Program-made: the position numbers and the translations under genes
The notes under the pieces: generated by a model
Database searches by the model: none
What the model saw: only the letters and a program-made list of their open reading frames with translations
What the model was told of the DNA's origin: nothing
In this document: positions 4,131 through 19,377 of the stretch, piece by piece
Layout of the letters: every line of letters starts with the position of its first letter
How positions within the stretch are numbered: position 1 is the stretch's first letter
NCBI GenBank assembly: GCA_964489875.1
Contig: CAZAZW010000002.1
Location: forward strand, 64,503-128,502
DNA length: 64,000 nucleotides
From: an uncultured Gammaproteobacteria bacterium
Lineage (GTDB): Bacteria; Patescibacteriota; Microgenomatia; Daviesbacterales; UBA10151
Direction of reading: 5' to 3'

Positions 4131-5097
4131 TTTTAAGCTAATCACAACAAGTATACTTTTTGTGTTGATGTTTGTCTTAACAGGCCAAGTCTTTGCGGCG
4201 GATCTGTCTGTCAAAATTGAAACACCAAAAAGCTCAACCAGAGAAAACAGCTTTAAGATTGGTTTTGTGACCCTGGATATTCAGGGTAGATCAGTAACTG
4301 TGAAATGCTTGAAAAAAGGTCCTTCTGAAGGGAGCTTTACTCAATTCGGATCTGATTTTGTCTTTACGCCGGGAGGAAACAGCGGTAACTGTGAGGTGAC
4401 TTCCTCAATAATTTCCAGCCAAGGGACTTATCAATTTAAAGTTACTGCTCAAGCCGGAGCAGAGACAGCGGAGAGCTCAACTGTCTCTGTTTCATACGCA
4501 ACCGATTCTCCCAGCACACCGTCCTATTCTAAAGAGCAATTATCCTCTTGTGATTATAAAATTAAATTCAAAACTGCTGATGATGGCAGAACTGCTAAAG
4601 TGAAGATTTATAGATCTACCGAGACCAGCTTTACCGCTGATTCAGGGACAGAGATCGGCACTGTCAATATCGGCCCAAATCTGGAGGGAAGCTTTACTAA
4701 TTCTGTTCCGGATTGCAGCAAAACTTACTACTTTGCCATCAGGGCTTTTGATGATGCGGGTAATGGCTCTGGGGTAGCGAGTGATAGTGCAGTGACGGTA
4801 ATTACTACAACGACCACTGTGGCGGCATCCCCTACACCAGGTGGGGCTATTCCGGTAGCCGAGTCACAAGTCTCTGAAGGCTCTATTTTGGGAAGCACGG
4901 CGGCTGCCAGCGAAGAAGGGGTATTAGAAGAAGGGGTATTAGGAGAAGAAGCTACTCCCGGCTCAGAAATATCAGTTTCACCCACACCTCTGCCTCAGAC
5001 AGGACCCTTCACAAGGCTTTTTAGTTTAAGGAATTTAATCTATGCAGCTTTAGCAGGTTTGGTGATATACTTCCTCTATCGGCGGTCCCGCAAGTAA
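4123..5097 (+). CDS. LPXTG-anchored surface protein with signal peptide, Ig/FN3-like middle and a Thr/Ala-rich stalk.
   Basis: The N-terminus has signal peptide 'ILFVLMFVLTGQVFA'. The C-terminus is 'LPQTGPF' + TM helix + 'YRRSRK', the canonical sortase sorting signal. The start overlaps the upstream gene's stop (ATGA-type coupling). Confidence 0.75.
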   Translation: MNNFKLITTSILFVLMFVLTGQVFAADLSVKIETPKSSTRENSFKIGFVTLDIQGRSVTVKCLKKGPSEGSFTQFGSDFVFTPGGNSGNCEVTSSIISSQGTYQFKVTAQAGAETAESSTVSVSYATDSPSTPSYSKEQLSSCDYKIKFKTADDGRTAKVKIYRSTETSFTADSGTEIGTVNIGPNLEGSFTNSVPDCSKTYYFAIRAFDDAGNGSGVASDSAVTVITTTTTVAASPTPGGAIPVAESQVSEGSILGSTAAASEEGVLEEGVLGEEATPGSEISVSPTPLPQTGPFTRLFSLRNLIYAALAGLVIYFLYRRSRK

Positions 5098-5103
5098 ATC
5101 TTC

Positions 5104-5703
5104 ATGAAGAAATTATCACTTGTTCTGATAGCCTTAGGTTCTTTTAGTGTTATTTTGGCAGTTGCTATTTTTATAGCCATTTTCTATTCAGTAATTTCAG
5201 TGGAAGTAGGATATCAGATTAATCAGGTTTCTGGGCAGTCGGGAGTGAAAAAAGAAATAATCCCGCTTGATAAGGATTTTGGGGTAGTAATTCCTAAAAT
5301 TTCCGCCAATTCCAAAGTTATACCTAATGTGGATCCATTTAATGAGAAGGTATACCAAGAGGCCCTGACGCGTGGGGTGGCCCATGCCAAAGGAACAACC
5401 GTACCCGGAAAAGAAGGGAATGTTTTCTTATTTTCTCACTCTTCTGTAAATTTTTATGAGGCTAATCGATACAATTCAATTTTTTACCTTTTGGATAAAT
5501 TAACAGTTGGAGATGAAATAGACCTTTATTATTTAAACTCTAAATTTAAATATGTTGTTACTGAGAAAAAAGTGGTAGATGCTGCGGATGTAAAATATTT
5601 AGGCAACCTTGGATCAGGTAAAACTGTTACACTGATGACCTGTTGGCCGGCCGGGACCAGCTGGAAAAGACTGTTGGTAATAGGAACGTTAGCAGAAAAT
5701 TAA
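5104..5703 (+). CDS. Sortase (transpeptidase), membrane-anchored.
   Basis: N-terminal TM helix. Catalytic motifs are His 'GVAHAKGTTVPGKEGNVFLFSHS', Cys 'VTLMTCWP' (TLxTC) and the downstream Arg 'WKRLLVIG'. It lies immediately 3' of two LPQTG substrates. Confidence 0.85.
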   Translation: MKKLSLVLIALGSFSVILAVAIFIAIFYSVISVEVGYQINQVSGQSGVKKEIIPLDKDFGVVIPKISANSKVIPNVDPFNEKVYQEALTRGVAHAKGTTVPGKEGNVFLFSHSSVNFYEANRYNSIFYLLDKLTVGDEIDLYYLNSKFKYVVTEKKVVDAADVKYLGNLGSGKTVTLMTCWPAGTSWKRLLVIGTLAEN

Positions 5704-6503
5704 CCTTGAGTTGGAACTAATTCCTGAGTGAGAGCTATAGTAGCTGTGAATGCTAAGTTAATTGTACCAAGTTTTCCCATGATGCTTGCTCTATGATTAT
5801 TGGCTGTTTTTGGTGAGATAAAAAGCTGTTCTGATATTTCCTGGCTGGTTTTTCCTTGTACCAACAAAGCCAAAATTTCTGTCTCTCTTTCTGATAAGGA
5901 TTCACCTAGTGTAACCTTTTTAGCTGGAGGAAAAAATCTGCTTCTTTCCTCAGGCGGAACAGCAGCCAAAACCATGAAAATAGCTTCAACTCTATTTCCT
6001 GCGCCCAAATTATCTAAGATCGATGCTCGATGATTATCCGCAGTTTTAGGGCTGATGCAAAGTTTATCTCCTATTTCTGAACTTGTATACCCTGAAGCCA
6101 TCAAGCTAAAAACATCTTTCTCTCTTGGCCTAAATGCAACATTATTCCCACCAATTTGTAGGGTATGTACTGAATCTAACATGACTTTAAAAGCTAGGCT
6201 TGTTGCAACTCTTTCGTCTTCAGAAAACTTTTTGTTTATAGTAGCTTGGCGATCAGCGAGTTGATCTGGAGCGAGACCAAGTATCCATCTGATAGTAGTA
6301 GGATCCATTCCTTGAGCATTCAGATAAACAATCTTTTCTTCTAAGGGATCGAATCCTCCGTCAGGCAGCATTGTTTGTAAAAAGGCTGGCAGGCCTCTAT
6401 TATTTAAGTTTGGATTGGGTGGTCCTTCTTGATGTTGTAAATGTTCCATAAATTTAGCAATGTCTAATTTTGCAAGCCCATAGTTTAACATAACTTTTAT
6501 CAT
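5700..6503 (-). CDS. Transcriptional regulator with two tandem LuxR/GerE-type HTH domains.
   Basis: It has two copies of the LuxR C-terminal HTH signature: 'TSSEIGDKLCISPKTADNHRASILDNLG' and 'TSQEISEQLFISPKTANNHRASIMGKLG'. It converges on the sortase operon. Confidence 0.65.
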   Translation of the reverse strand: MIKVMLNYGLAKLDIAKFMEHLQHQEGPPNPNLNNRGLPAFLQTMLPDGGFDPLEEKIVYLNAQGMDPTTIRWILGLAPDQLADRQATINKKFSEDERVATSLAFKVMLDSVHTLQIGGNNVAFRPREKDVFSLMASGYTSSEIGDKLCISPKTADNHRASILDNLGAGNRVEAIFMVLAAVPPEERSRFFPPAKKVTLGESLSERETEILALLVQGKTSQEISEQLFISPKTANNHRASIMGKLGTINLAFTATIALTQELVPTQG

Positions 6504-6584: not shown

Positions 6585-7682
6585 TTGACAAGACATATTA
6601 GAGAAGACTATAACGTAGATGTTTCTATTTTAAATTTCCAAAAGAGAGGGGGTGAAAAAATATTGAATAAAGTAATAATGACAGTTTTTGGCATCTTCGT
6701 CTCTCTCTCTCTTCTATTTGTAACTCCAGCCTTAGCAGCAAAACCCGTTGATACTTGTCAGTATGTTGTGGACGGCAATATACCTTACGCACCTGGTCAC
6801 TATCTGGCTAGTCAGTTTTTAATGCCAGGATACGACGTATTTGGTTATAACTACCAAGCTCATATCTTTAACGGCAGTTTTGCTAATGCGTATCTAGGGA
6901 GACCGGGATCGGGATTACCGCCATATACGGGCGACGACACCGCTTATTTAGCGGAAAATCCTACTGCTGCGAGCCATTGGGCATGGCCGTTTAGGAATGT
7001 CCAGTTGCAGATGAAGTGGAATGACGCTTGGTTGGCTAATAAAGATTGCGGACCAGACGGTTTACTCGATAGACCTTCGCCCTATAAAGGTTCTGGAGCA
7101 TGGTTAACAAACCACGCAACAGGAACTTATGAAGGTAGCATATGGGATGCGACAGGTAACTATGTCATAAATGTAGAATATCTTGGGGTAGATTACCCAG
7201 AAGACTTAGTCCTGCTACAAAGCGGTAGTAGTATAACGGGCACTTCTCTAGAACTGGTTGGAGGTGGATCGCCATGGACAATAGATTCAGGTACCGTCAG
7301 TGGTAATTCAATAGAATTTGAAGGTTATTTTAACAGTAATCCTTCGATGAGAGTGCACTTTACAGGTAGTATTGCGGTTGATGGATCAATGAGCGGAAAT
7401 TGGGGAGATCTAGCACCGGGAACAAGAATAGGTATATGGGCCACAACATCCGGAGCGGCTATACATCCAATTTGTACAGTAAGCGATTTCGTCAAGATTA
7501 TTGCTCCACCTGCAACAGCAACAAAGGTAGCTGATGTTTGGTATACGGCTGATGAATCCGAAATCGGACAGGATATTTGGGGAGAGTTTGCCATAATCCA
7601 AGAAGAAGCCAGTGATCCTTGTAGTGAGTATGGAATCATTAACTACATGAGTCCTTTGAAAAAAGGTCTTGGAGGTTGGTAA
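6585..7682 (+). CDS. Secreted hypothetical protein; the true start is probably internal (TTG ~6663 or ATG 6678).
   Basis: Signal peptide 'MTVFGIFVSLSLLFVTPALAA' starts at the internal Met (6678). RBS-like 'agagagggggtg' lies at 6644-6655. I recognise no domain. Local GC looks higher than background. Confidence 0.55.
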   Translation: MTRHIREDYNVDVSILNFQKRGGEKILNKVIMTVFGIFVSLSLLFVTPALAAKPVDTCQYVVDGNIPYAPGHYLASQFLMPGYDVFGYNYQAHIFNGSFANAYLGRPGSGLPPYTGDDTAYLAENPTAASHWAWPFRNVQLQMKWNDAWLANKDCGPDGLLDRPSPYKGSGAWLTNHATGTYEGSIWDATGNYVINVEYLGVDYPEDLVLLQSGSSITGTSLELVGGGSPWTIDSGTVSGNSIEFEGYFNSNPSMRVHFTGSIAVDGSMSGNWGDLAPGTRIGIWATTSGAAIHPICTVSDFVKIIAPPATATKVADVWYTADESEIGQDIWGEFAIIQEEASDPCSEYGIINYMSPLKKGLGGW

Positions 7683-7866
7683 TAAGTAAAAAATTCAGCC
7701 CATCGGGTTATTACCCTGAGTGAACTTGTACTGAGCGAACTGGTGGTGAGCGTAGTCGAACCAGTCGAAGTAATCAAAGGGATGACTCGGTGGGTTGTTT
7801 TTTTGTCTTGCATTCAGTTTTGCAAAAGAGTATATTCCAATTGCTGCCTGAACAACTTTTCTTAAA

Positions 7867-8463
7867 ATGTCGGGCGTTTTTGTATTACTATTCTTAATTA
7901 CTTTTGTCCTTTTGATTATCAGTTTGGTTAAGCCTGGGTTCCTAAATCGAATAATCAAGAGAGAACTTTCAAGGAAACAAAGTTCGCTTGGTATAGGTGC
8001 AATATTATTAATACTTTTTGTCTTAATTGGTATAACAGGTCCTAAAACAGAAATAAAAGGTGAAAGCACAGTTCGAGAAAGTTCTCCTAGTCCTACACTA
8101 GAACCCACTCCTACACCAACTTTAAGTCCTAGTCCTACTCCAAGCCCGACACCATCTTCGACGCCAACCCCAACGCCATCACCGTCGCCGACGCCTAGTC
8201 TTTTGCCTTTGCCTACGCCTACATCTATACCAACTCCAACAATAATTGCTACCCCTACACCAACTCCTCAGCCAAATAATTCCTCAACATCTAATAACTG
8301 TGATCCTTCTTACCCAGATGTTTGTATACCAATAGGTGCTGCTGATTACGATTGTGCAGGTGGTAGCGGTAATGGTCCAAATTATATTCAGGGTCCAATT
8401 CGTGTTCTTCCACCAGATCCTTACGATCTAGATCGTGATAATGATGGAATCGGCTGCGAATAA
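7867..8463 (+). CDS. Membrane-anchored protein with Pro/Thr-rich linker and C-terminal Excalibur (extracellular Ca-binding) domain.
   Basis: N-terminal TM 'VFVLLFLITFVLLIISLV'. Linker is a '(P[TS])n' repeat. The C-terminal 'DLDRDNDGIGCE' matches the Excalibur DxDxDGxxCE motif. Confidence 0.7.
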   Translation: MSGVFVLLFLITFVLLIISLVKPGFLNRIIKRELSRKQSSLGIGAILLILFVLIGITGPKTEIKGESTVRESSPSPTLEPTPTPTLSPSPTPSPTPSSTPTPTPSPSPTPSLLPLPTPTSIPTPTIIATPTPTPQPNNSSTSNNCDPSYPDVCIPIGAADYDCAGGSGNGPNYIQGPIRVLPPDPYDLDRDNDGIGCE

Positions 8464-8550
8464 TGATGAATTCTGGAATAACCTTGCTTCCATTCGGTGG
8501 ATTGTTTTTTGTTGTTTTTGGGGAAATTTAAGCGATTCGGAGAGCAACAA

Positions 8551-9114
8551 TTACTGGACAACTTCACAACTATTTACATCAATAACTCCAACTGTTTGAC
8601 CACCGACAATCCCTCTTACAGTGACAGTTTGCCCATTTTTTAATGGCAGAAGTTGTTGCTTATCTTGTATCCTGCAACTAATTTGAGTTACCGAGAATTG
8701 CTTAGAAGCTACGTTATAAAATGAGATACCACTATCTGTGATATTTGATATTTGAGCTGAAAACTCGACAAGTTTATCCTTCCATTTATCTTTAGCTGCA
8801 ACTTGATTAGTGTCAAAATCATCTGCTAGATCTCTGGCACTTATTTTTTCAGGTGTTGGCGTTGCCTTAACCTCATTGCTAACATTTGTAGTTGTTACTC
8901 GATTGCTATTTTGATTACCACTGGTTGTAGATTGACCGCTATTCTTATTGCCGCTACTACCAATTGCTCCAATCATTCCGATTATAAATAAAACAAGAAT
9001 TCCAGTCAGGATTGGGTGTCGTCTAAACCAGCCTCTTTGATCCGTTTGGCAATGCGGACATTTTTTTGCTTTGCTGTCTATTTCCATTTGGCAACTCTTG
9101 CATTTTTTCGACAT
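8551..9114 (-). CDS. Zinc-ribbon / single-TM / DUF4352-like extracellular domain protein.
   Basis: N-terminal 'CKSCQ..x11..CPHCQ' zinc ribbon, then TM helix 'ILTGILVLFIIGMIGAIG', a Ser/Thr/Asn-rich linker and a beta-rich C-terminal domain. Confidence 0.55.
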   Translation of the reverse strand: MSKKCKSCQMEIDSKAKKCPHCQTDQRGWFRRHPILTGILVLFIIGMIGAIGSSGNKNSGQSTTSGNQNSNRVTTTNVSNEVKATPTPEKISARDLADDFDTNQVAAKDKWKDKLVEFSAQISNITDSGISFYNVASKQFSVTQISCRIQDKQQLLPLKNGQTVTVRGIVGGQTVGVIDVNSCEVVQ

Positions 9115-9222
9115 ATTATTCTGACCTTAATCTAATTTACAGTTTATCACAAGATATCAAGGTTTCTCAAAATCCTGTCTTGGTTGAACAAGCAAGAGAA
9201 AGACTAAAACAAATAAATTTAC

Positions 9223-10158
9223 TTAAAATTTCGGACTCACTCGAACATTCATAAAATGGGCATGTTCTCCAGGATAACACCTAAAACCTACTCTACCAAC
9301 TGAATAGTTCATAGGAACAAATTTTCTCAACAATTTAACCTTCTCTGTCTTTTCATTCTCTCTTTGGATTTCAACTATTTCTCCTGTTAATGGGCTAGGA
9401 ATTATGATGGGGTCTTGAATGAAATAATGTGCTGAGTGTTTTCCATTAAGATAGACATCGATATTACTACCAAGAACGAGAATTCTTACCTTTATCCATG
9501 TTAACAATTTTATTTCATCAGCATATTCCAATTCATCAACCTTAATTACTACCCATTGATAATCAATAGAACCAGGAATTTTAAGATGGAGTCTTAGTTT
9601 TGGGTTTTGTGGGTCTTCAAGATTAATCTGAATCATTAAATATTTACTTCTGTTTTCTGCCCGTACTATCCAACCCGCATTTTTCTCAATGATTTTCGTA
9701 TCGAAACTAAACTCATAATCGTTCCAGCTAAAACCTTTTTTTGTAATTCCTCCATCTGGAGAGTCGGACACGCTCAGTAGGGATTTGCCATCTTCATATT
9801 CAACTTTCCATCCTTCATCTCCATATTCCCACTTAACTAATCCATTGGTAAATTTATCATGGAATTCTCCAGAAACGAGCTTCAAATAACGTGACTTTGT
9901 AAACGCCCAAATGATTGCAATTAATACTAAAAACCAAAAGTATACGGGGATTCCAAATATAGGAACCATTAGATACCTTACTAATAGTTGAAGAGAATTA
10001 ATTAAATAATTATAGATAGTTTCCCAAAGACCAATGGTTTTGAGCAAAATGATTATTGCCGTTAAAGACCCGACAATGCGACCAATACCAGTCTTTAGAA
10101 AAAAATCACCAATTATTTTAAAGAAGTTAAGAAAATAATACCCAAAATTTTTATCCAT
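9223..10158 (-). CDS. Membrane-anchored DUF1080 / LamG-like (concanavalin-type) domain protein.
   Basis: Three N-terminal hydrophobic helices. The C-terminal domain has the DUF1080 pattern 'W..GDEGWKVE..DG.L....YEFSFDTKI...GWIV...' and 'GRVGFRCYPGEHAHFMNVRV' (compare 'GxIGLQxHGxxVxFRNIxI'). Confidence 0.55.
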   Translation of the reverse strand: MDKNFGYYFLNFFKIIGDFFLKTGIGRIVGSLTAIIILLKTIGLWETIYNYLINSLQLLVRYLMVPIFGIPVYFWFLVLIAIIWAFTKSRYLKLVSGEFHDKFTNGLVKWEYGDEGWKVEYEDGKSLLSVSDSPDGGITKKGFSWNDYEFSFDTKIIEKNAGWIVRAENRSKYLMIQINLEDPQNPKLRLHLKIPGSIDYQWVVIKVDELEYADEIKLLTWIKVRILVLGSNIDVYLNGKHSAHYFIQDPIIIPSPLTGEIVEIQRENEKTEKVKLLRKFVPMNYSVGRVGFRCYPGEHAHFMNVRVSPKF

Positions 10159-10244
10159 ATTTTGGGCAGGTTCAACTTAAATTGGTCAGATTAAGAAAAT
10201 TCAGCTCCCTGGATGGGATTTGGATTTCGAAGCCATTATATCAC

Positions 10245-10670
10245 TCAAATCCTGGGAAAATCTACTAAATTTTCTGTTATTGTTTTTGTGATAAGCTTGA
10301 AAATTTTATCTCTATCCTTTGGATTTGATTCAGAAACTAAACAGGCAAGCTTATAAAGATTAATGGGATCAATATTTATCCACTTTCCGTTTAAACTTAG
10401 AAAGGTAAGTATTGCCATGACAGCTATTCTCTTGTTGCCGTTTCTAAATGGATGATTTTTAATTAATGAATAAAATAGAATTGACGCTTGTTTCTCAAGA
10501 GTTGGGTAGAGAAGTTTTTGTTCAAAGGTTTGCTTTGGTGCTCCCAAAGAAGATTCTAGTAAACCATTATCTCTGGTTGAATAATCTGGTATGGGTTCCT
10601 GGTAAGTCATTAACTCTCTGGTAAGATCAAAACAAAGGAATTCAAAATCTTCGGGTTCTAACCATCTCAT
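10245..10670 (-). CDS. doc: Doc-family (Fic-fold) toxin of a type II toxin-antitoxin pair.
   Basis: 'HPFRNGNKRIAVMA' matches the Doc signature H-x-F-x-(D/N)-(A/G)-N-K-R. The size (141 aa) fits. Its start is translationally coupled (ATGA) to an upstream small ORF. Confidence 0.7.
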   Translation of the reverse strand: MRWLEPEDFEFLCFDLTRELMTYQEPIPDYSTRDNGLLESSLGAPKQTFEQKLLYPTLEKQASILFYSLIKNHPFRNGNKRIAVMAILTFLSLNGKWINIDPINLYKLACLVSESNPKDRDKIFKLITKTITENLVDFPRI

Positions 10671-10801
10671 GTAGAGGCAAGTTTTTTAAAGGTTAAGGCA
10701 TATTGTTTAACACCCTGCTCAACAGCTTTTTTGATTAAACTTGCTTTTTGCGGGTTTCGCTTTTGATATTTAGTAGGAGAGAACTTTTTCTTGTCATTCA
10801 T
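10667..10801 (-). CDS. Small basic ORF (44 aa) immediately upstream of and overlapping doc: candidate antitoxin. It is not in the supplied ORF track because it is under 60 aa.
   Basis: Manual reverse-complement translation gives 'MNDKKKFSPTKYQKRNPQKASLIKKAVEQGVKQYALTFKKLAST*'. Its TGA overlaps the doc ATG (ATGA). This position and size are typical of Phd/RHH-type antitoxins. Confidence 0.5.
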   Translation of the reverse strand: MNDKKKFSPTKYQKRNPQKASLIKKAVEQGVKQYALTFKKLAST

Positions 10802-10897
10802 GAGGATATTTTAACATAAAAGTAATTAGTTTAAAACTACAGGTAGGACATCTAGGTAAATTCGGTAGGTTGTTTTTTGGTGGTATAATGCAGCATT

Positions 10898-11503
10898 ATG
10901 AGTCTGGAGCACTTTAGTCAAACGCATCCGGCAAGTCCTGAACTTAGGGAAATAATGCTAAGAAAGAAGGAGAGGGGTAAAAACTCGGGGTCTCTGGTCA
11001 GTCTGTTGGCTTTCGATATGGCTCAGGCAGCAGGAAGTGGTATACAGGAATTAACCAGGGAGTTCAGTTATGCCAGGGTTGCCATGAATTTTGATCCTGA
11101 TTTATTTAAAAGAATGGATCCGAAAAATAGAAATGCTCTTATTCAACATCATGCAGCAGTTGTCTTTGGGGTTTCAGTACTTGGGATTGAGGATGCGTTG
11201 TGGACCAGGGTATTTGATAGAAGTGTGTGGTTTGTTCGCTATAACCTAGCCATGGCCGGTACACCATTTCGAGGTACAAATATGAGAGGAAAAGGTATTG
11301 AAGAGCTACCGGCAGAACAACATGCAACTATGATTTATCATGCCGGAAAAGACAAAACGCTCTCGGTTTTCTTTAATGGAGAGCTGAAAAGTTTGCCAAC
11401 CGGGCTCAGGTCTATTTTAGAGCAAGCTGGCCGGCTGCAACAAATCAGGTCAGGTGTTCTCCCGATATACTCTGAGCGTGCCCGTTTTCTGGTTGGTCAG
11501 TGA
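10898..11503 (+). CDS. Hypothetical protein (201 aa) with elevated local GC.
   Basis: Clean ORF with a 'tggtataat' -10 element upstream. I recognise no motif. It converges on and overlaps the Rad52-like gene by 7 nt. Confidence 0.5.
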   Translation: MSLEHFSQTHPASPELREIMLRKKERGKNSGSLVSLLAFDMAQAAGSGIQELTREFSYARVAMNFDPDLFKRMDPKNRNALIQHHAAVVFGVSVLGIEDALWTRVFDRSVWFVRYNLAMAGTPFRGTNMRGKGIEELPAEQHATMIYHAGKDKTLSVFFNGELKSLPTGLRSILEQAGRLQQIRSGVLPIYSERARFLVGQ

Positions 11504-11988
11504 ATTTTGTGGGAATATGCCGGTCTAGACCCTTCTTCACTTTCAGGAGCTTGAGTTTCCAACTCCTTCCAATAAACATCCCCGGCTATCCCCAACATTG
11601 AGGCGCACTTTTTTAAACAATCTGAAGAAGCTGCTTTTAGGTCATCGGCAATGGAAATAGGTTCTCCGGTAGTTCTGTTAAATTTAATATCTGCCCCGCC
11701 AAATTGACCTTTAACAATGGTGTGTCCCTTTGCCCTGACTGAGAGTTCCCCTCTGACCCAGACTTGTTTTTTGCCAATTTGTTGATCCAATATTCTAAAA
11801 TCCCAATCCCAGCCAAAGACCTGGTTTAGCATATTAATTACATAGCCAACTTCTACATAAGATAAGGGGATTCCTCCCGGCCCCGGCCTGGTTTTTATAA
11901 ATGCCCGGGGAGTTTTTTGGGTAATAAAATTTAACTGGGCCTGATTTAAATATTGAGGCAACACTGCTACTTCGCTCTTGTCAGCCAT
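11497..11988 (-). CDS. Rad52/Rad22-family (phage Sak-like) single-strand annealing protein.
   Basis: 'YVEVGYVINMLNQVFGWDWDFRILDQQIG' aligns with the Rad52 core '[29 protein letters not shown]'. 'DDLKAASSDCLKKCASMLGIAGDVY' aligns with '[29 protein letters not shown]'. Recall-based alignment, not a search. Confidence 0.6.
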   Translation of the reverse strand: MADKSEVAVLPQYLNQAQLNFITQKTPRAFIKTRPGPGGIPLSYVEVGYVINMLNQVFGWDWDFRILDQQIGKKQVWVRGELSVRAKGHTIVKGQFGGADIKFNRTTGEPISIADDLKAASSDCLKKCASMLGIAGDVYWKELETQAPESEEGSRPAYSHKIH

Positions 11989-12059
11989 AATAATATTAGT
12001 TTAATCTTTTCAGATTAATTAGGGATAAAATTAAGGTAAGGGATTTGTAAGTATTGTAC

Positions 12060-12089
12060 TTGACAGCAAAAGGGTAATTTGTAATAATG
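12060..12089 (+). promoter_or_regulatory. Sigma70-like promoter (TTGACA-17-TAATAAT) for the metzincin gene. The ATG lies ~8 nt downstream, suggesting a leaderless mRNA.
   Basis: ttgaca at 12060-12065, a 17-nt spacer, taataat at 12083-12089, ATG at 12097. Confidence 0.4.
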
Positions 12090-12096
12090 CATAAGA

Positions 12097-12870
12097 ATGA
12101 ATAAGATCAGTTCAAAGCTTATTCCGGCAGTACTGTTTTTTACCGCGACAATTCTTTTCAGCGTCTTCTCTTCTTCCGTTGCTTTAGCCAATCATTCCTG
12201 GGGTGGATATCATTGGGCCAGGACCGCTAATCCCTTTACTTTGAAATTAGGTGATAATGTTTCATCTGCCTGGGATCCCATCCTTGGCACCACTTCTTTT
12301 GATTGGAGTAAATCTACTGTCTTGGATACGAATATTGTGACCGGCGGTACCAAACCCCGCAGCTGCCGGGCCACCTCGGGTCGGGTGGAAGTCTGCAACT
12401 CCAAGTATGGAAATAACGGCTGGTTGGGTATAGCGCAAATTTGGGTGAGCGGCCTGCATATCGTGCAAGGGGTGACCAAAGTCAATGACACTTATTTTAA
12501 CACTAAAACTTACAATACTCTTGCCTGGCGTAATCTGGTGATGTGCCAGGAAGTTGGCCATACTTTGGGGCTGGACCATCAGGATGAGAATTTTGACAAT
12601 GGCAATTTAGGCAGCTGTATGGACTATACTTCTGATCCGAGTACCAATCAGCACCCTAATAAACATGATTACGATGAGTTGGAATTAATCTATGCTCATT
12701 TTGACGCCAGTACGACTCTTTCTCAAACACTTTTACATCCGGGTCAAGGTAACTTCGATAATCCGACAGAGTGGGGCAGATTAGTTAAAAAAGAAGGTCG
12801 TGTAGCAGTTTTTGAGAGGGACTTTGGTTTGGGGAACAAATTATTCACCTTCGTCATTTACGCCGACTAG
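12097..12870 (+). CDS. Secreted metzincin-type zinc metalloprotease (snapalysin/matrixin-like).
   Basis: Signal peptide present. 'EVGHTLGLDHQ' fits HExxHxxGxxH, followed by the Met-turn 'SCMDY'. Confidence 0.7.
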   Translation: MNKISSKLIPAVLFFTATILFSVFSSSVALANHSWGGYHWARTANPFTLKLGDNVSSAWDPILGTTSFDWSKSTVLDTNIVTGGTKPRSCRATSGRVEVCNSKYGNNGWLGIAQIWVSGLHIVQGVTKVNDTYFNTKTYNTLAWRNLVMCQEVGHTLGLDHQDENFDNGNLGSCMDYTSDPSTNQHPNKHDYDELELIYAHFDASTTLSQTLLHPGQGNFDNPTEWGRLVKKEGRVAVFERDFGLGNKLFTFVIYAD

Positions 12871-13277
12871 TTAGTCATTGGTAACTATTTCTTTAGTTGC
12901 TTTCAGCAGATTGCAGGTAACCACTAAATATGATTCTGATGTCCAGGGGGTTAATGCCAAAAATGGCGACAATAATCCCGGGCGCGGTTCAACTTCCAGT
13001 GAAAATAATAGTAAACAAACTGTTGTTTCTCCAACCGGCGCAAAGAGTAAAATTCAACCGAAAACAGTAACTACCAAGGAAACTGAAACAGAAAATGAGG
13101 TTGAAAAGGATTAGGTCCTAAATTCTTTCAAGCCACGCCTTCTGCTACACCTGTGAGTACATCTTCTGCCACCGTCAGCTTCTCCGGAAGAAGAACCAAT
13201 TTCCTCTCATTTCCTTCGGGTATTTTTCGTGGTAAAATGGACTGTCACCCTTGCGAAGCAATGGGCAAGATTTTCTT

Positions 13278-15251
13278 ATGGCAAAATTTAAAATTGTTTC
13301 CGGTTTCAAGCCTACCGGGGATCAGCCTCAAGCGATTGATAAGCTTGTACGCGGCCTAAATCAAGGAAGGGAGCATCAGGTTTTGCTGGGAGTAACTGGG
13401 TCGGGTAAAACGTTCTCAATTTGTAATGTAATTGAGCGAGTGCAAAAACCGACCCTAATAATTGTACAAAATAAGACTTTAGCAGGACAGCTTGCACAAG
13501 AATTTAGATCTCTATTTCCTCAAAATGCTGTGGAATATTTTGTTTCCTATTATGATTATTATCAACCTGAGGCTTATATCCCGCAAAGTGACACTTATAT
13601 TGAAAAAGATGCCTCAATAAATGAGGAAATTGAAAAACTTCGGTTGGCCACAACCGCTTCGCTTTTGACCCGTAAAGATGTTGTGGTGGTAGCTTCGGTT
13701 TCCTGTATTTATAACTTAGGTTCCCCGATTGAATATGGCCAGGCAATTTTGGAAATAGGAAAAGGCATGAAAGCGGGAATGCAACAGGTGATGAAAATTT
13801 TGCAGAAAATGTATTACGCGCGAAATGATATTGATTTTAAGCGCGGGACTTATCGGGTACGCGGCGACACAATTGATATTTTTCCTTCATACATGGATCT
13901 CGGTTACAGGTTACAGTTTTTAGGTGATAGGGTAGAAAAGGTAGCGAAGCTGGAAGTGGTCACAGGCAACACTGAGGAAATGTTAGGGACACAAGTAATT
14001 TATCCGGCAAAGCACTACATTACTCCGGAACAAAGGGTGGTGCCCGGAATGAAGCAAATAGAGATAGATTTAGAGTCTAGAATCAAGAGTCTAGAGTCAA
14101 GTGGTAAACTGGTAGAGGCACAGAGACTTCAGCAAAGAACTCGTTATGATTTGGAGATGATCCGGCAATTCGGCTATTGTAACGGCATTGAGAATTACTC
14201 CCGTTATTTTGACGGCAGAAAGCCGGGTGAGCCGCCTTATACCCTGCTAAATTACTTTCCTAAGGACTTTTTAGTAATTATTGATGAATCACATATCACC
14301 ATTCCGCAAATCCGGGGGATGTATAACGGAGACAGATCAAGAAAGGAAACTTTGATTGACTTTGGGTTCAGGCTGCCTTCAGCTTTGGATAATAGACCTC
14401 TTCGGTTTGACGAATTCATGAGAAATGTTAATCAGGCAATCTATACTTCTGCTACTCCTGATGAATATGAATTATCTTTGGCAGGAAAAGATGGTGTGGC
14501 CGAACAATTGATCAGACCGACCGGAGTCTTAGATCCGGTGATTTCTGTCCGGCCAATCCAGGGGCAAATTAATGACTTAATGCGGGAAATTGAGAAGCGG
14601 GTAGTGGACCACGAAAGGGTGCTGGTAACAACTTTAACTAAGAGGATGGCTGAGGATCTGGCCGAGTATTTACATGATAAAGGAATTAAAGTCCATTATT
14701 TACATTCTGATGTTAAAACACTGGAACGGAGCGATATCCTGCAGTCTTTGCGGCTGGGGGAATATGATGTGATTGTGGGAATTAATTTGCTAAGGGAGGG
14801 GTTGGATTTGCCTGAAGTGTCTTTGGTAGCTATTTTAGATGCGGATAAGGAAGGGTTTTTACGTTCAAGAACATCCTTGATTCAGACCATGGGACGGGCT
14901 GCAAGGCATGTAAACGGCCAGGTAATTATGTATGCGGATATCGTGACCGGATCGATGAAAGCTGCCATAGATGAGGTGGAGCGAAGAAGAAAATACCAGG
15001 CAGAATATAACAAAAGACACAATATTACCCCCAGAAGTATTGAAAAGGCTTTGCGGGAGAGGCTGATTGAAAAAGTGGAGGAGCTGGAGGAGAGTTTAGG
15101 CAAAAAAGATCTGACAATAGAGGATATTCCGGCCTCTGAGCGGGAAAAAATGATCAAAAACCTGGAAGCCCAGATGAAACAAGCAGCAGAGCTTTGGGAT
15201 TTTGAAGAAGCAGCCAGAATCAGGGATCAGATAAAGGAGTTAAGTATTTAA
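13278..15251 (+). CDS. uvrB: Excinuclease ABC subunit B (UvrB).
   Basis: 'FKIVSGFKPTGDQPQAIDKL', Walker A 'GVTGSGKT', helicase motifs, a beta-hairpin region and the C-terminal UVR domain 'WDFEEAARIRDQIKEL'. The ORF-track start 13251 is probably 9 codons too long. Confidence 0.93.
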   Translation: MAKFKIVSGFKPTGDQPQAIDKLVRGLNQGREHQVLLGVTGSGKTFSICNVIERVQKPTLIIVQNKTLAGQLAQEFRSLFPQNAVEYFVSYYDYYQPEAYIPQSDTYIEKDASINEEIEKLRLATTASLLTRKDVVVVASVSCIYNLGSPIEYGQAILEIGKGMKAGMQQVMKILQKMYYARNDIDFKRGTYRVRGDTIDIFPSYMDLGYRLQFLGDRVEKVAKLEVVTGNTEEMLGTQVIYPAKHYITPEQRVVPGMKQIEIDLESRIKSLESSGKLVEAQRLQQRTRYDLEMIRQFGYCNGIENYSRYFDGRKPGEPPYTLLNYFPKDFLVIIDESHITIPQIRGMYNGDRSRKETLIDFGFRLPSALDNRPLRFDEFMRNVNQAIYTSATPDEYELSLAGKDGVAEQLIRPTGVLDPVISVRPIQGQINDLMREIEKRVVDHERVLVTTLTKRMAEDLAEYLHDKGIKVHYLHSDVKTLERSDILQSLRLGEYDVIVGINLLREGLDLPEVSLVAILDADKEGFLRSRTSLIQTMGRAARHVNGQVIMYADIVTGSMKAAIDEVERRRKYQAEYNKRHNITPRSIEKALRERLIEKVEELEESLGKKDLTIEDIPASEREKMIKNLEAQMKQAAELWDFEEAARIRDQIKELSI

Positions 15252-15262
15252 TTTGCTTAAGA

Positions 15263-15613
15263 TCACTCTCTGCTGGGGCAATCTGTAGCTGGAACTCCTG
15301 CGTCTAAGTAACGTTCTATTAATTCTTCTTGAACAGCAGGGTCCTGAATTATTAAGTTTTGTTTAAAAAGTTTCTGAGTGTGTAAGTAGTGATTACGAAC
15401 TCCTTTTGCTGATTGACGAAATTCCTCCATTGCTTTGCCTGTTAAGTGATGAATAGTCTCATTGTAAATGCGTCTCTCTTCTGGTGTCAGGGGTTTACCG
15501 GAAGCGTCTACACCACGGTGTAATAATTGATTAAGACGGGCAATGGCTCCTTGGCCTCCAGCTTGGCCTTCCGGTAAGGTATCTACAAATTTCCCTGCTT
15601 CTATTTTGTCCAT
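15263..15613 (-). CDS. Hypothetical protein (116 aa).
   Basis: Clean ORF between uvrB and uvrA. I recognise no motif. Confidence 0.45.
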   Translation of the reverse strand: MDKIEAGKFVDTLPEGQAGGQGAIARLNQLLHRGVDASGKPLTPEERRIYNETIHHLTGKAMEEFRQSAKGVRNHYLHTQKLFKQNLIIQDPAVQEELIERYLDAGVPATDCPSRE

Positions 15614-15792
15614 TTCAGTATATTATACCCTATAATTATATACTTTAATCGAAACTGAGTCAAATCTTGCAAAATAAGAACCTGCTCGCACTTCGGTTTG
15701 AAACTATTTTACCTCGTGCTCGCAGAACCTTGCCTTTTGACTTTGTCGGAAAGGTAGGTTAAAATAGATGCTTAATTTCGGGAAAACTTCGC

Positions 15793-18717
15793 ATGGCTGT
15801 TGATAAAATAATCATCAAAGGTGCCAGAGAGCACAATCTCAAAAATATTGACCTGGAAATTCCCAAGAATCAGTTGGTGGTTTTAACCGGCATTTCCGGC
15901 TCAGGTAAATCCTCTTTGGCTTTTGATACTCTTTATGCGGAAGGACAGCGTAGATACGTGGAATCCCTCTCTTCTTATGCCAGACAGTTTTTAGGGGTCA
16001 TGGACAAACCTGATGTGGATTTAATCGAAGGACTTTCTCCGGCTATTTCTATTGACCAAAAGGGAGTTTCTCACAACCCCAGGTCTACTGTTGGTACAAC
16101 CACAGAAGTTTATGATTACTTAAGGCTGCTTTTTGCCAGGGTTGGCCATCCTCATTGTCCGATTTGTGGTAGAGAAGTTTCAAAGATGTCAGTAGAACAA
16201 ATTGCGGAAAGAGTGACTAGTGACAAGAGTATAGAGTCTAGTAAAAAAGGGAAGAGAATAATGATATTGGCGCCGGTGGTGAAAGACAGGAAGGGAGAAT
16301 ATTCCCAGCTTTTTGAGGATTTTAGGAAAAAGGGATTTTCTAAAGTAAGGGTTGACGGACAGGTTAGAGATCTATCTGACGACCTGGTTTTAATTAAAAC
16401 TAACAAGCATACAATTGATGTAGTGGTAGATCGGTTGGTAATAGAGTCAAGAGTCAAGAGTCAAGAGTCAAGTGAATCGCAGTCTAGGCTCTCGACTCTA
16501 GCGACTAGACTCTTCCAAAGCATTGAGACAGCGCTAAAATTAGGTGAAGGTTCAGTGATTATATCTGAAGTATTAGATGCCTCTTTAGAATTTCCTCAAA
16601 ACCCTAAAAAAATGAAGGATCAACTCTACTCTGAAAGATTTGCTTGCCCGGTAGATAATATTTCTTTGCCGGAAATTGAACCGAGACTCCTGTCATTTAA
16701 CTCCCCTCACGGAGCTTGTCCGACTTGTTCCGGATTAGGAACACTGCTAGAAATAGATGAGACAGCTATTTTAAATCCCATTCTTTCTATTGCCGAAGGA
16801 GGGATTTTGCCCTGGAGTAAACTTGCCACCAGTGATACTTGGTTTACCAGGTTGATTGAATCGGTAGGCAAAGAAAATAAGTTTGATTTAAATACCAGAT
16901 TGGGTAATTTAACACCCGAAGCCAGGAAAATCCTACTTTTCGGAAGTGGCAAGGAGGAGTTTAAAGTAGAAGGAAGAAACAGACAGGGAAGGTGGACACA
17001 TTTCTATTCAAGCTTTCAAGGATTAGTTACCTATCTCAAGGAAAGGTATACTACCTCTGAATCGGATTTTGTGAAATCGGAAATTGAAAAGTATATGGTT
17101 AAAGAAATTTGTCCAAAATGCAAGGGTGCCAGATTGAAAGATGAAGCGCTGTCAATCACGATAGAAGGATCTAATATTGCGGAGGTGACCGGTCAATCAA
17201 TAGTTCAGACACATGAATGGATTAAAGATATTAAGTTGTCTGATCGGGAGACCCAAATCGCCACCCCGGTTGTGAAAGAAATTAAGGCCAGACTACAGTT
17301 TTTAATTGATGTTGGTTTGGATTATTTGACTTTGGATCGGGCTGCTATGACTTTGGCCGGGGGAGAATCACAACGGATAAGGCTTGCTTCCCAAATCGGC
17401 TCAGGACTTTCCGGAGTGTTATATGTTTTGGATGAACCATCCATTGGTTTACACCAGCGGGATAACAGTCGGCTGATTGAAACTTTAAAAAAGCTAAGGA
17501 ACTTAGGTAACACTGTGATTGTCAATGAACATGACGCTGAAACCATGGAAGCGGCAGACATATTGATAGAAATAGGTCCTGGAGCCGGTGAACACGGTGG
17601 TAAAGTTGTGTTTATGGGAACTCCTGATGAAATGAAAAAAAGCTCCACTTCTTTAACCGGTCAATACCTTTCAGGGAAGAAAAAAGTAAAGGTGAACAGT
17701 GAATTACAAAGGGAACCGGTTAATATGGGTTATCTTAAACTCTTGGGAGCAGCAGAACATAACCTAAAAAATATCAACATCTCTTTTCCTTTAGGCAAAT
17801 TTATTGCAGTTACCGGTGTTTCCGGCTCAGGTAAATCAACTTTAATTCATGACATTTTGTATAAAGCTCTAGCGCAAAAGATCTACCGGTCAAGGGAAAG
17901 AGCTGGTCTCTACAAAGGGATGGAGGGAATAGAATACGTTGATAAAGTTGTATTGGTGGACCAATCACCGATTGGCCGGACTCCCCGATCTAATCCGGCT
18001 ACTTATACCGGAGCGTTTACTTTTATTAGGGAATTATTTGCCCAGAGTCCGGAAGCTAAGATCAGGGGTTACGGCCCGGGCAGATTTTCTTTTAACGTCA
18101 AAGGCGGCAGGTGTGAAGTTTGTGAAGGTGAAGGCACTTTAAAAATTGAAATGCAATTTTTGCCGGATGTTTATGTGACCTGTGAATCATGCAATGGTGC
18201 CAGATACAACCGTGAGGCTTTGGAAATTCATTTTAAAGATAAAAATATTGCCGAGGTTTTAGATATGACGGTTGAGGAATCCTTAAAGTTTTTTGAAAAT
18301 ATTCCCCAAATCAAGAATAAACTGCAGGTTTTATTTGACGTTGGGTTAGGGTATATCAGGTTGGGTCAGCCGGCTCCTACTTTGTCCGGGGGTGAAGCTC
18401 AGAGGATTAAACTGTCTTCGGAGTTGTCCAAACGATCCACAGGACAAACAATGTATATCCTGGATGAGCCTACTACAGGATTGCACTTTGCTGATATTGA
18501 AAGGCTATTAACCATACTTAGAAAGCTGGTAAACTTTGGTAATACAGTGGTTATTATTGAACATAACCTGGATGTGATTAAAAATACTGACTGGATTATA
18601 GATTTAGGACCGGAAGGCGGAGATCAGGGTGGACAGGTAATAGCGGAAGGCACTCCGGCTCAAGTGGCTAAACTTAAGGGTTCTTATACTGGTCAGTATT
18701 TGGCCAAGATCATATGA
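15793..18717 (+). CDS. uvrA: Excinuclease ABC subunit A (UvrA).
   Basis: 'NLKNIDLEIPKNQLVVLTGISGSGKSSLAFDTLYAEGQRRYVESLS', two ABC modules, zinc-finger Cys clusters, and 'LSGGE.QRI.LAS' signatures in both halves. Confidence 0.95.
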   Translation: MAVDKIIIKGAREHNLKNIDLEIPKNQLVVLTGISGSGKSSLAFDTLYAEGQRRYVESLSSYARQFLGVMDKPDVDLIEGLSPAISIDQKGVSHNPRSTVGTTTEVYDYLRLLFARVGHPHCPICGREVSKMSVEQIAERVTSDKSIESSKKGKRIMILAPVVKDRKGEYSQLFEDFRKKGFSKVRVDGQVRDLSDDLVLIKTNKHTIDVVVDRLVIESRVKSQESSESQSRLSTLATRLFQSIETALKLGEGSVIISEVLDASLEFPQNPKKMKDQLYSERFACPVDNISLPEIEPRLLSFNSPHGACPTCSGLGTLLEIDETAILNPILSIAEGGILPWSKLATSDTWFTRLIESVGKENKFDLNTRLGNLTPEARKILLFGSGKEEFKVEGRNRQGRWTHFYSSFQGLVTYLKERYTTSESDFVKSEIEKYMVKEICPKCKGARLKDEALSITIEGSNIAEVTGQSIVQTHEWIKDIKLSDRETQIATPVVKEIKARLQFLIDVGLDYLTLDRAAMTLAGGESQRIRLASQIGSGLSGVLYVLDEPSIGLHQRDNSRLIETLKKLRNLGNTVIVNEHDAETMEAADILIEIGPGAGEHGGKVVFMGTPDEMKKSSTSLTGQYLSGKKKVKVNSELQREPVNMGYLKLLGAAEHNLKNINISFPLGKFIAVTGVSGSGKSTLIHDILYKALAQKIYRSRERAGLYKGMEGIEYVDKVVLVDQSPIGRTPRSNPATYTGAFTFIRELFAQSPEAKIRGYGPGRFSFNVKGGRCEVCEGEGTLKIEMQFLPDVYVTCESCNGARYNREALEIHFKDKNIAEVLDMTVEESLKFFENIPQIKNKLQVLFDVGLGYIRLGQPAPTLSGGEAQRIKLSSELSKRSTGQTMYILDEPTTGLHFADIERLLTILRKLVNFGNTVVIIEHNLDVIKNTDWIIDLGPEGGDQGGQVIAEGTPAQVAKLKGSYTGQYLAKII

Positions 18718-19358
18718 AAAAACGTAAATTTGATGCAGCCTTATTTGATGTTGATGGCACAATTTTAGATACCGGCGAATATATCTTTCAAGCTTACAAA
18801 TATACCCTGGCTCTTCACTTAAAAAAAGAAGTCACCTGGGAAGACGTTGTTCCGGTTTTAGGTTTGCCATTTGACCAGTGTTACCGTTTACTGACAAACC
18901 TGGAAGAAGTGGATTACTTAATGGAAACTCACCACCAGTATCAGACTAAAAATCCACAGTTAGTTAGACCCTATGAACATACTTTACAGGCTTTAGGATC
19001 TTTGAAAAAAGCCGGAGTGGCCATTGGAGCTGTTACCAGCCATAGCGGTGAACTGCTGGTCAGAAATTTAAAAAATGCCGGAATAGATAAATTCTTTAAA
19101 GTTATTGTTACCCCTTTTGAAGTTATAAATCCCAAACCGCATCCCGAATCGGTTTTTAAGGCTTTGGAGGTTCTTAAAGTCAAACCAAACAAGACGGTTT
19201 TTATCGGAGACAGTAAGGCTGATATAGAAGCCGGCAAGGGTGCAGGAGTTAAAACGATAGCAGCCTTATATGGATTTCATGGAGAAAAACTTCGGGAAAC
19301 AAAACCGGATTATGCAGTTTCGGATATCCAGGAAGTAGTTTCGATTATACTCGAGTGA
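18714..19358 (+). CDS. HAD-superfamily hydrolase (phosphoglycolate-phosphatase-like).
   Basis: Motif I 'ALFDVDGTILDT' and motif IV 'VFIGDSKADIEAG'. It is coupled to the uvrA stop (ATGA). Confidence 0.75.
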   Translation: MKKRKFDAALFDVDGTILDTGEYIFQAYKYTLALHLKKEVTWEDVVPVLGLPFDQCYRLLTNLEEVDYLMETHHQYQTKNPQLVRPYEHTLQALGSLKKAGVAIGAVTSHSGELLVRNLKNAGIDKFFKVIVTPFEVINPKPHPESVFKALEVLKVKPNKTVFIGDSKADIEAGKGAGVKTIAALYGFHGEKLRETKPDYAVSDIQEVVSIILE

Positions 19359-19377
19359 TAAACTTTGCTACAATATA

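Follow-up and report, generated by a model that had tools for sequence, protein, structure and literature searches.

A probably domesticated phage-type Rad52-family gene next to uvrB in Daviesbacteria-like bacteria, outside a neighbouring strain-variable slot

The closest described relatives of the protein treated here are the N-terminal part of human RAD52 (residues 1-212; PDB 1KN0, 1H2I, 5XRZ and 8BJM), the Rad52-like proteins of phages, and DdrA of Deinococcus radiodurans. The phage proteins (the lactococcal ul36 Sak type, phrog_37405, a hypothetical protein of the Polaribacter phages P12002L/S and homologues on viral contigs) are about 200-220 aa long and are encoded in replication/recombination modules with an exonuclease next to them. 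In bacteria, the role most often compared with that of Rad52 is played by RecO, a mediator that anneals SSB-coated single-stranded DNA (ssDNA). DdrA (DR0423), which has a homologue in Thermus, is a cellular, vertically inherited member of the Rad52 family that is tied to recovery from DNA damage (PMC1978522). Rad52-family genes in bacteria are usually read as phage cargo, and annotators and island-finding programs tend to flag them as prophage remnants. Here, a 163-aa Rad52-family protein is described from a stretch of 64,000 nucleotides, referred to as the window (assembly GCA_964489875.1, contig CAZAZW010000002.1, positions 64,503 to 128,502). The contig is deposited as an uncultured Gammaproteobacteria bacterium and is placed by GTDB in the Patescibacteriota (Daviesbacterales), within the candidate phyla radiation (CPR). 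The gene is probably an anciently domesticated, solitary annealing-protein gene of phage type, fixed in Daviesbacteria-like CPR bacteria and working in host DNA repair. Loci of relatives are labelled L001 onward, L051-L055 being viral contigs from IMG/VR.

An original prediction, made from the letters of the window alone, had read the 163-aa protein by eye as a Rad52-type annealing protein. This call stands. The protein matches the Pfam family Rad52_Rad22 (PF04098) over residues 22-138 (E = 9.2e-9; score 35.8 bits, gathering score 20.3) and phrog_37405 (E = 3e-33), and a profile built from 20 homologues retrieves human and yeast RAD52 from the PDB with E = 6e-6. The AlphaFold2 (AF2) model, with a predicted local distance difference test score (pLDDT) of 75, shows a helix (16-25), a hairpin (31-35 and 41-45), a helix (47-58), a three-strand sheet (61-71, 75-86 and 89-100) and a long helix (113-131), the order of elements also found in human RAD52. 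When this model was compared with the PDB using Foldseek, 13 matches were obtained at E <= 0.001, all of them human RAD52; the best has E = 1.7e-7, with modest template modelling (TM) scores of 0.31-0.45. The best fold match in BFVD is a phage Rad52/59/22 protein (E = 4e-12, TM score 0.58).

With hhalign, residues 22-135 pair with residues 43-161 of human RAD52, whose sequence was checked against the PDB profile alignment over residues 38-93. In this alignment, R34, Y44, K126 and K127 stand opposite R55, Y65, K152 and R153, which line the ssDNA groove of the human protein, and all four are invariant among the 20 aligned homologues. By family, fold and conserved groove residues, the 163-aa protein is a genuine Rad52-family protein. 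It differs from human RAD52 in being bacterial and only 163 aa long, in lacking the C-terminal half that binds RPA and RAD51, and in a sequence identity of about 20-28%. Residues 140-163 (11497-11570) comprise a variable acidic linker and, in most CPR homologues, a (P)AYSH(K/R)(I/V) end, which is missing in 4 of the 20 aligned sequences. This conserved tail may serve to bind a partner.

A protein search with the Rad52 sequence gave 466 clusters (90% identity) at E <= 1e-3. The best 120 of the 466 are 68-91% identical, lie on contigs of up to 1 Mb and all carry PF04098; the named members among these 120 are Candidatus Daviesbacteria or Patescibacteria. In a scan of species representatives, 21 loci from 19 different genomes were found at 69-87% identity, the other 19 loci having 44% identity or less and belonging to other phyla. 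Identity to proteins of viral contigs is at most 53%, and the best GenBank phage matches, those of Polaribacter phages P12002L/S, are 47.7% identical. In a neighbour-joining tree, the CPR proteins form a monophyletic clade on a long stem with the viral contigs as nearest outgroups. By sequence, too, the phage proteins are the closest relatives outside the CPR clade.

The title 'uncultured Gammaproteobacteria' is carried by most of the high-identity loci and by many records of 'binchicken' and other co-assembly metagenome-assembled genomes (L008, L009, L011-L013, L015-L018, L021, L025, L027 and L035). These titles were treated as mislabelled because the loci with a uvrA or uvrB hit (L008, L009, L011-L013, L016 and L018) encode proteins 72-86% identical to those of the window.

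Across 13 loci, Rad52 and UvrB have mean pairwise identities of 0.786 and 0.785, respectively, and the pairwise values of the two correlate with r = 0.58. The ratio of nonsynonymous to synonymous substitution rates (dN/dS) of the Rad52 gene is 0.017-0.075, and synonymous sites are saturated between species. The gene is a slowly evolving, vertically inherited chromosomal gene with a rate like that of UvrB, and such a low dN/dS does not fit a decaying gene.

The Rad52 gene is also placed like a chromosomal gene. In the window and in 11 other genomes, Rad52 and uvrB point away from each other, 80-2741 bp apart, and uvrA comes after uvrB. By tblastn, 12 loci have uvrB at 0.1-2.7 kb from Rad52, and in a thirteenth, L022, the distance is 6.4 kb; the gap is 80-107 bp in L003, L008, L012 and L013 and 0.5-2.7 kb where genes intervene. 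The features of this part of the window are as follows.

10898-11503, plus strand: 201-aa protein without a Pfam family, convergent with the Rad52 gene, at the right edge of the recombining region
11497-11988, minus strand: Rad52-family protein, 163 aa, consisting of the annealing domain only, an acidic linker and a C-terminal 'YSHK' tail
11989-12096, both strands: divergent intergenic region between the Rad52 gene and the 257-aa gene, with promoter-like sites on each strand
12097-12870, plus strand: 257-aa metzincin-like protein at most, predicted to be secreted, placed between Rad52 and uvrB in this lineage
13251-15251, plus strand: uvrB, the neighbour of Rad52 (Pfam domains of homologues, tblastn)
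15793-18717, plus strand: uvrA (Pfam domains of homologues, tblastn)
21272-22552, plus strand: short uvrC, 426 aa (GIY-YIG domain and UvrC RNase H endonuclease domain)

The short uvrC completes a nucleotide-excision-repair neighbourhood at 13251-22552. Within this uvrB-uvrA-uvrC cluster, HAD hydrolase and transglutaminase-like genes are interspersed.

Other contexts of the Rad52 gene are cellular as well. Its neighbours are guanylate kinase, an ABC/MacB transporter and pentose-phosphate genes in L048, and UDG, HD and CTP synthase genes in L050. In L023, L024 and L026, which come from more distant CPR lineages, a thioredoxin-like/NHL protein, GT9 and DUF1846 are found. The first of these, which is conserved, about 500 aa long and contains NHL repeats besides a thioredoxin-like (AhpC/TSA) domain, follows Rad52 on the same strand (L023 8426-9928, L024 8564-10039, L026 5669-7177). 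This context suggests a different conserved neighbourhood, possibly linked to oxidative stress. In L017, a 495-aa protein in which a DnaQ/RNase T-type exonuclease is joined to a GIY-YIG nuclease (9936-11423) is encoded on the opposite strand, 1.5 kb from Rad52.

No integrase or phage structural gene adjoins Rad52 in the CPR loci examined; the sole integrase noted is in L003, 5 kb from Rad52 and beyond lexA. For the window itself, the original prediction had reported no integrase, terminase or att site, and likewise none was found here. In the viral loci L051, L053 and L054, an exonuclease gene (phrog_5715) directly follows the Rad52 homologue. A tblastn search with this viral exonuclease gave no counterpart in the window or in any CPR locus, in agreement with the description of the Rad52 gene as an orphan. 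The CPR gene differs from its phage relatives in being solitary, chromosomal, syntenic with uvrB and subject to strong purifying selection. A phage origin of the CPR gene is probable because its nearest outgroups are viral and have this adjacent exonuclease.

Upstream of the Rad52 gene, a promoter-like block is present on the minus strand, consisting of CTTAC-N6-CTTACC (12036-12051), 17 nt and TAATCT. The corresponding CTTRC-N6-CTTAC(C)-N17-TRAnnT block is found 60-72 nt upstream of the Rad52 ATG in the window and in 13 other loci (12 other genomes), and resembles a promoter whose -35 region is unusual. As an operator specific to Rad52 or to repair it was rejected, since it precedes unrelated genes and its count in the window is 1 against 1.5 expected. 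Its position upstream of unrelated CPR genes indicates that it is probably a promoter type of the lineage and not a repair operator; it may represent a lineage-specific promoter or sigma-factor type. On the plus strand, a promoter scan gave the candidate TTGACA-17-AATAAT (12060-12088, 11 of 12 consensus matches) for the 257-aa gene.

The uvrB gene has a promoter block of its own, CTTCGGGTATTTTTCGTGGTAAAAT (13205-13240), which is common to the window, L001, L009, L011, L012, L016, L018 and L019. It contains a TTCG...TTCG direct repeat with an 11-nt period in the spacer before an extended -10 site, TGgTAAAAT, and a copy with 3 mismatches abuts the start of uvrA (15777-15793). Judged from this arrangement, the block may be a repressor operator; it could be LexA-like, a suggestion made because lexA is located 5 kb from Rad52 in L003. 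An operator shared by uvrB and Rad52 was considered and rejected, as TTCGGGTATTTTTCGTG is exact at uvrB only and its approximate matches in the window (17 against 12.5 expected) are not enriched.

The gene convergent with Rad52 was searched for a family. The 201-aa protein has no match in Pfam, PHROG, NCBIfam or PADLOC, which agrees with the original statement that it belongs to no recognisable family; it is, however, not an orphan. A word-index search gave 5 close homologues and an exhaustive HMMER search 161 clusters (50% identity), most of them about 200 aa long. With a profile of 50 family members, the word-index search gave only 7 proteins, and nothing significant was found in the PDB or Pfam; the best PDB match, 3c9p (SP1917), was rejected as chance at E = 0.4. 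An AF2 model made from 5 sequences was unusable (pLDDT 39.5). The dN/dS of 0.20-0.29 indicates that the ORF is a real gene.

The 7-nt overlap with Rad52 that had been described is real (11497-11503, TCAGTGA) but incidental, being 4 nt in L005 and replaced in L001 by a peptidase gene between the two genes. As a partner of Rad52, the 201-aa gene was discarded, since only the closest relatives (L001, L002 and L005-L007) have its family near Rad52, and the other CPR loci lack it. A convergent 162-aa gene that overlaps Rad52 in L048 is unrelated to it. Between the window and L005, DNA identity is 52-77% in the 201-aa gene (10898-11503 against 8001-8618) and 91-97% in Rad52, with a sharp step at about 11482. 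Synonymous divergence is 0.99 for the 201-aa gene versus 0.31 for Rad52. Two types of allele exist, one in the window, L006 and L007 and the other in L005 and L001. The step in identity fits allelic replacement of the 201-aa gene by recombination ending at the gene junction.

On the other side of Rad52, the 257-aa protein had been called a leaderless secreted metzincin. Neither part of this call holds up well. The Pfam matches to DUF4953 and Peptidase_M10 are below threshold (E = 0.03-0.08, 13-14 bits, with cut-offs of about 24). In the motif QEVGHTLGLDH, a Gln replaces the first zinc-ligand His of HEXXHXXGXXH/D, as it does in L005. The N-terminus, read by eye, resembles a signal peptide, so that 'leaderless' looks wrong. 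Judged from its sequence, the protein would be metzincin-like at most and may be an inactive or atypical metalloprotease. It is 85% identical in L005. In L003, L008, L012 and L013 it is absent from this position, uvrB and Rad52 being immediate divergent neighbours there.

To the left of the 201-aa gene, the window changes in character. The following features belong to this part; every ORF that the original prediction had named is present in the ORF list where it had been placed.

5700-6503: GerE-type regulator with two GerE domains, left border of the variable slot
6620-10862: variable (accessory) slot bordered by the GerE-type regulator and the 201-aa gene, from blastn breakpoints
7785-7807: 23-nt repeat ATTCGGTGGATTGTTTTTTGTTG, extra copy inside the slot
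8492-8514, plus strand: 23-nt repeat ATTCGGTGGATTGTTTTTTGTTG, left copy, at the left edge of the low-GC cassette
8515-10859, minus strand: low-GC cassette within the slot, from composition and the bracketing 23-nt repeats
8551-9114, minus strand: Zn-ribbon/transmembrane/OB-fold protein, 187 aa (ORF list, Pfam)
9223-10158, minus strand: membrane-anchored DUF1080 protein, 311 aa (ORF list, Pfam)
10245-10670, minus strand: Doc/Fic toxin, 141 aa (ORF list, Pfam, NCBIfam, PHROG)
10667-10801, minus strand: antitoxin candidate, 44 aa, with a 4-nt overlap with the Doc start
10860-10882, plus strand: 23-nt repeat ATTCGGTGGATTGTTTTTTGTTG, right copy, at the right slot boundary just upstream of the TGgTATAAT promoter-like site of the 201-aa gene

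In blastn comparisons with L005 and L006, homology runs through the SpaA/sortase/GerE block, ends at 6619 and 6588, respectively, and restarts at 10868 and 10863. The interval measures 4.2 kb in the window, 0.9 kb in L006 and 1.3 kb in L005, where it holds DUF4926 and DUF6883 genes instead, and none of the slot genes of the window was found by tblastn in any other related locus. Therefore, 6620-10862 is a true strain-variable slot, and the limits of 8551-12870 proposed for the accessory patch have to be moved. The repeat ATTCGGTGGATTGTTTTTTGTTG occurs in three copies in the window, against 0 expected from 100 shuffles, and these copies are located at gene-module junctions. Two of them, in direct orientation, bracket the low-GC block 8515-10859. 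In L001, L005 and L006, terminator-like hairpins have a related copy as their 3' half.

The block between these repeats is a recently acquired accessory cassette, encoding the OB-fold membrane protein, the DUF1080 protein and the Doc toxin module. The Doc toxin matches PF02661 (E = 1.9e-15), TIGR01550 (48.2 bits, cut-off 38.65) and the Doc-like toxins of phrog_577, and its Fic-type motif HxFx(D/N)(A/G)NKR reads HPFRNGNKR. The 44-aa ORF upstream of it has no family match in Pfam, NCBIfam or PADLOC. In the toxin-antitoxin pair that had been proposed, the toxin is thus secure, while its partner stays an antitoxin candidate. The 311-aa protein was correctly assigned to DUF1080, a family now named 3keto-disac_hyd (PF06439). 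For the 187-aa protein, described before as Zn-ribbon/DUF4352-like, the Zn-ribbon was found, followed by a transmembrane helix and, instead of DUF4352, a tRNA_anti-like OB fold (PF12869, E = 2e-16). According to PHROG, this protein also resembles phage Sie-like (superinfection-exclusion) proteins.

Composition separates the two parts in the same way. The GC content of the window is 0.410, and that of 32 background genes 0.412±0.027. The Rad52 gene (0.431, z = +0.7) and the 201-aa gene (0.450, z = +1.4), which the original prediction had described as GC-rich, are ordinary among the genes of the window. The outliers are low: 0.333 for DUF1080, 0.329 for Doc, 0.341 for the antitoxin candidate and 0.376 for the Zn-ribbon/OB protein (z = -1.4 to -3.1). 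The Rad52/201-aa pair looks GC-rich because these low-GC genes adjoin it, which is a contrast effect. Over 8.5-11 kb, tetranucleotide distance rises to a peak of z = 2.0-2.3; for 10.5-13 kb, its values are below the average. Accordingly, the region 8.5-10.8 kb is atypical, whereas Rad52 and the 201-aa gene belong to the background. What remains of the predicted patch is its left part with the Doc module, as the Rad52, 201-aa and 257-aa genes are on the conserved flank.

The left border of the slot adjoins a SpaA-repeat protein, a 324-aa protein, a sortase and the GerE regulator, all upstream of the patch (Pfam). This conserved surface-structure locus (window 21-6503, L005 1-6509, L006 3-5546) encodes a 1369-aa protein with 11 SpaA_2 prealbumin-like repeats, the 324-aa protein, the sortase and a divergent helix-turn-helix regulator with two GerE (LuxR-type) domains. 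Its SpaA-repeat region has the strongest tetranucleotide deviation of the window, with z up to 4.2. An Rfam scan of the window gave tRNAs only.

Taken as a domesticated phage-type gene, Rad52 would have been captured once, in ancient times, from a phage recombination module. The exonuclease partner would then have been lost, and Rad52 would have persisted alone, as a monocistronic gene preceded by a conserved promoter-like block of its own. It would have become fixed in the host, in many species divergent from uvrB in the uvrB-uvrA-uvrC neighbourhood. The protein probably forms a ring like the Rad52 N-terminal domain, and probably also binds ssDNA in the basic groove (R34, Y44, K126 and K127) and anneals complementary strands without ATP. 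ATP-independent binding and annealing are suggested because the groove residues are conserved and the fold is that of Rad52. In the host, this could serve to mend resected breaks by single-strand annealing or to repair ssDNA gaps, or the protein could act in the manner of RecO or DdrA. For RecO, the likeness is one of function only, its fold and family being unrelated to CPR Rad52. We infer the oligomeric state, the annealing activity, the role in repair and which way the gene moved in the ancient transfer.

Several points weigh against this interpretation. The function is derived from homology and neighbourhood only. There is no uvrB within 8 kb of Rad52 in L017, L023, L024, L048 and L050, and genes often intervene between the two, such as the 257-aa gene in the window. 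As the linkage is neither universal nor direct, co-regulation of Rad52 with nucleotide excision repair is unproven. A search upstream of Rad52 gave no copy of the uvrB operator-like block, and the promoter-like motif of Rad52 also precedes unrelated CPR genes, e.g., those of Gly/Tyr-rich small proteins in L024 and L026. The neighbour-joining tree is a simple distance tree without support values, and the correlation of identities is built on non-independent pairs and includes one duplicated locus (L003/L004). Finally, many of the loci are titled 'uncultured Gammaproteobacteria', and their mislabelling is our interpretation of the UvrA and UvrB identities.

The original prediction implied that 8551-12870 is one decayed prophage or defence island with Rad52 as its orphaned recombinase. 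It is true that the Rad52 family is typical of phages (phrog_37405 and the viral relatives), that the Doc module and the Sie-like protein are only 0.8-3 kb away and that 8.5-10.8 kb is atypical in composition. However, the Rad52, 201-aa and 257-aa genes have background composition and are outside the variable slot. Rad52 is beside uvrB in 12 genomes and diverges with UvrB at a dN/dS of 0.02-0.08, and an integrase, att site, exonuclease or structural gene was not found. Background composition, synteny with uvrB and uvrA in 12 CPR genome loci across a broad clade, and a divergence that tracks UvrB imply that Rad52 is not part of a decayed integrated element, which makes a single island very improbable. 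A widespread small mobile element or satellite that carries Rad52 and repeatedly targets the region upstream of uvrB in different species is very improbable as well. Variable genes between Rad52 and uvrB (the 257-aa gene here, a 328-aa gene in L001) and a left neighbourhood that is a recombination hot spot would suit such an element, but the tracking of UvrB identity, the saturated synonymous sites between species, the absence of a flanking integrase or repeats and the purely cellular contexts elsewhere do not.

Other alternatives accept a cellular gene and assign it a different task. DNA-uptake machinery is commonly encoded by CPR bacteria, which would suit a role of Rad52 in RecA-independent integration of incoming ssDNA (natural transformation, fork annealing) rather than in damage repair. 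In line with such a role, oligonucleotide recombination is promoted by annealing proteins, the Rad52-like ones of phages included (PMC2896510). No competence genes are linked to Rad52 in the loci examined, though, and the recurrent neighbours are uvrB and uvrA, so that we regard this task as improbable. Somewhat less so, but still unlikely, is that the 163-aa protein acts as a DdrA-like DNA-end protection factor, shielding 3' ssDNA ends under desiccation or oxidative stress, and not as an annealase. DdrA, a Rad52-family protein encoded on the chromosome, belongs to a damage regulon and has a Thermus homologue (PMC1978522), and the thioredoxin-like/AhpC-NHL gene after Rad52 in L023, L024 and L026 hints at an oxidative-stress link. 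On the other hand, the conserved groove residues are those that human RAD52 uses for ssDNA binding and annealing, and end protection and annealing are not mutually exclusive. DdrA itself belongs to a different phylum, is controlled by the RDRM, a radiation/desiccation response motif, and is described as an end-protection factor; its likeness to CPR Rad52 is limited to the level of a cellular Rad52-family repair protein.

In full-text searches of a paper library, no paper was found that links Rad52 with CPR or Patescibacteria taxa. For the locus itself, the island boundaries are corrected, the accessory part covering only about 6.6-10.9 kb. As a small and highly conserved protein, the 163-aa Rad52 could be a candidate annealing protein for recombineering. 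As a domesticated Rad52 protein of phage origin, it would be a second cellular example in bacteria, beside DdrA of Deinococcus. A more far-reaching possibility, which we put forward only tentatively and consider rather doubtful, is that it is a core part of CPR recombination and repair, either replacing or supplementing the RecFOR-type mediator or providing RecA-independent annealing coupled to nucleotide excision repair. If this possibility is true, Rad52-type annealing would be a cellular pathway in a major bacterial lineage, beyond eukaryotes and phages. More generally, the gene is as conserved as uvrB in a lineage whose genomes measure about 1 Mb, is placed in the uvrB-uvrA-uvrC neighbourhood and no longer has the phage exonuclease beside it. 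This suggests that organisms with very few genes have retained it, by strong selection, for repair or recombination in the host.

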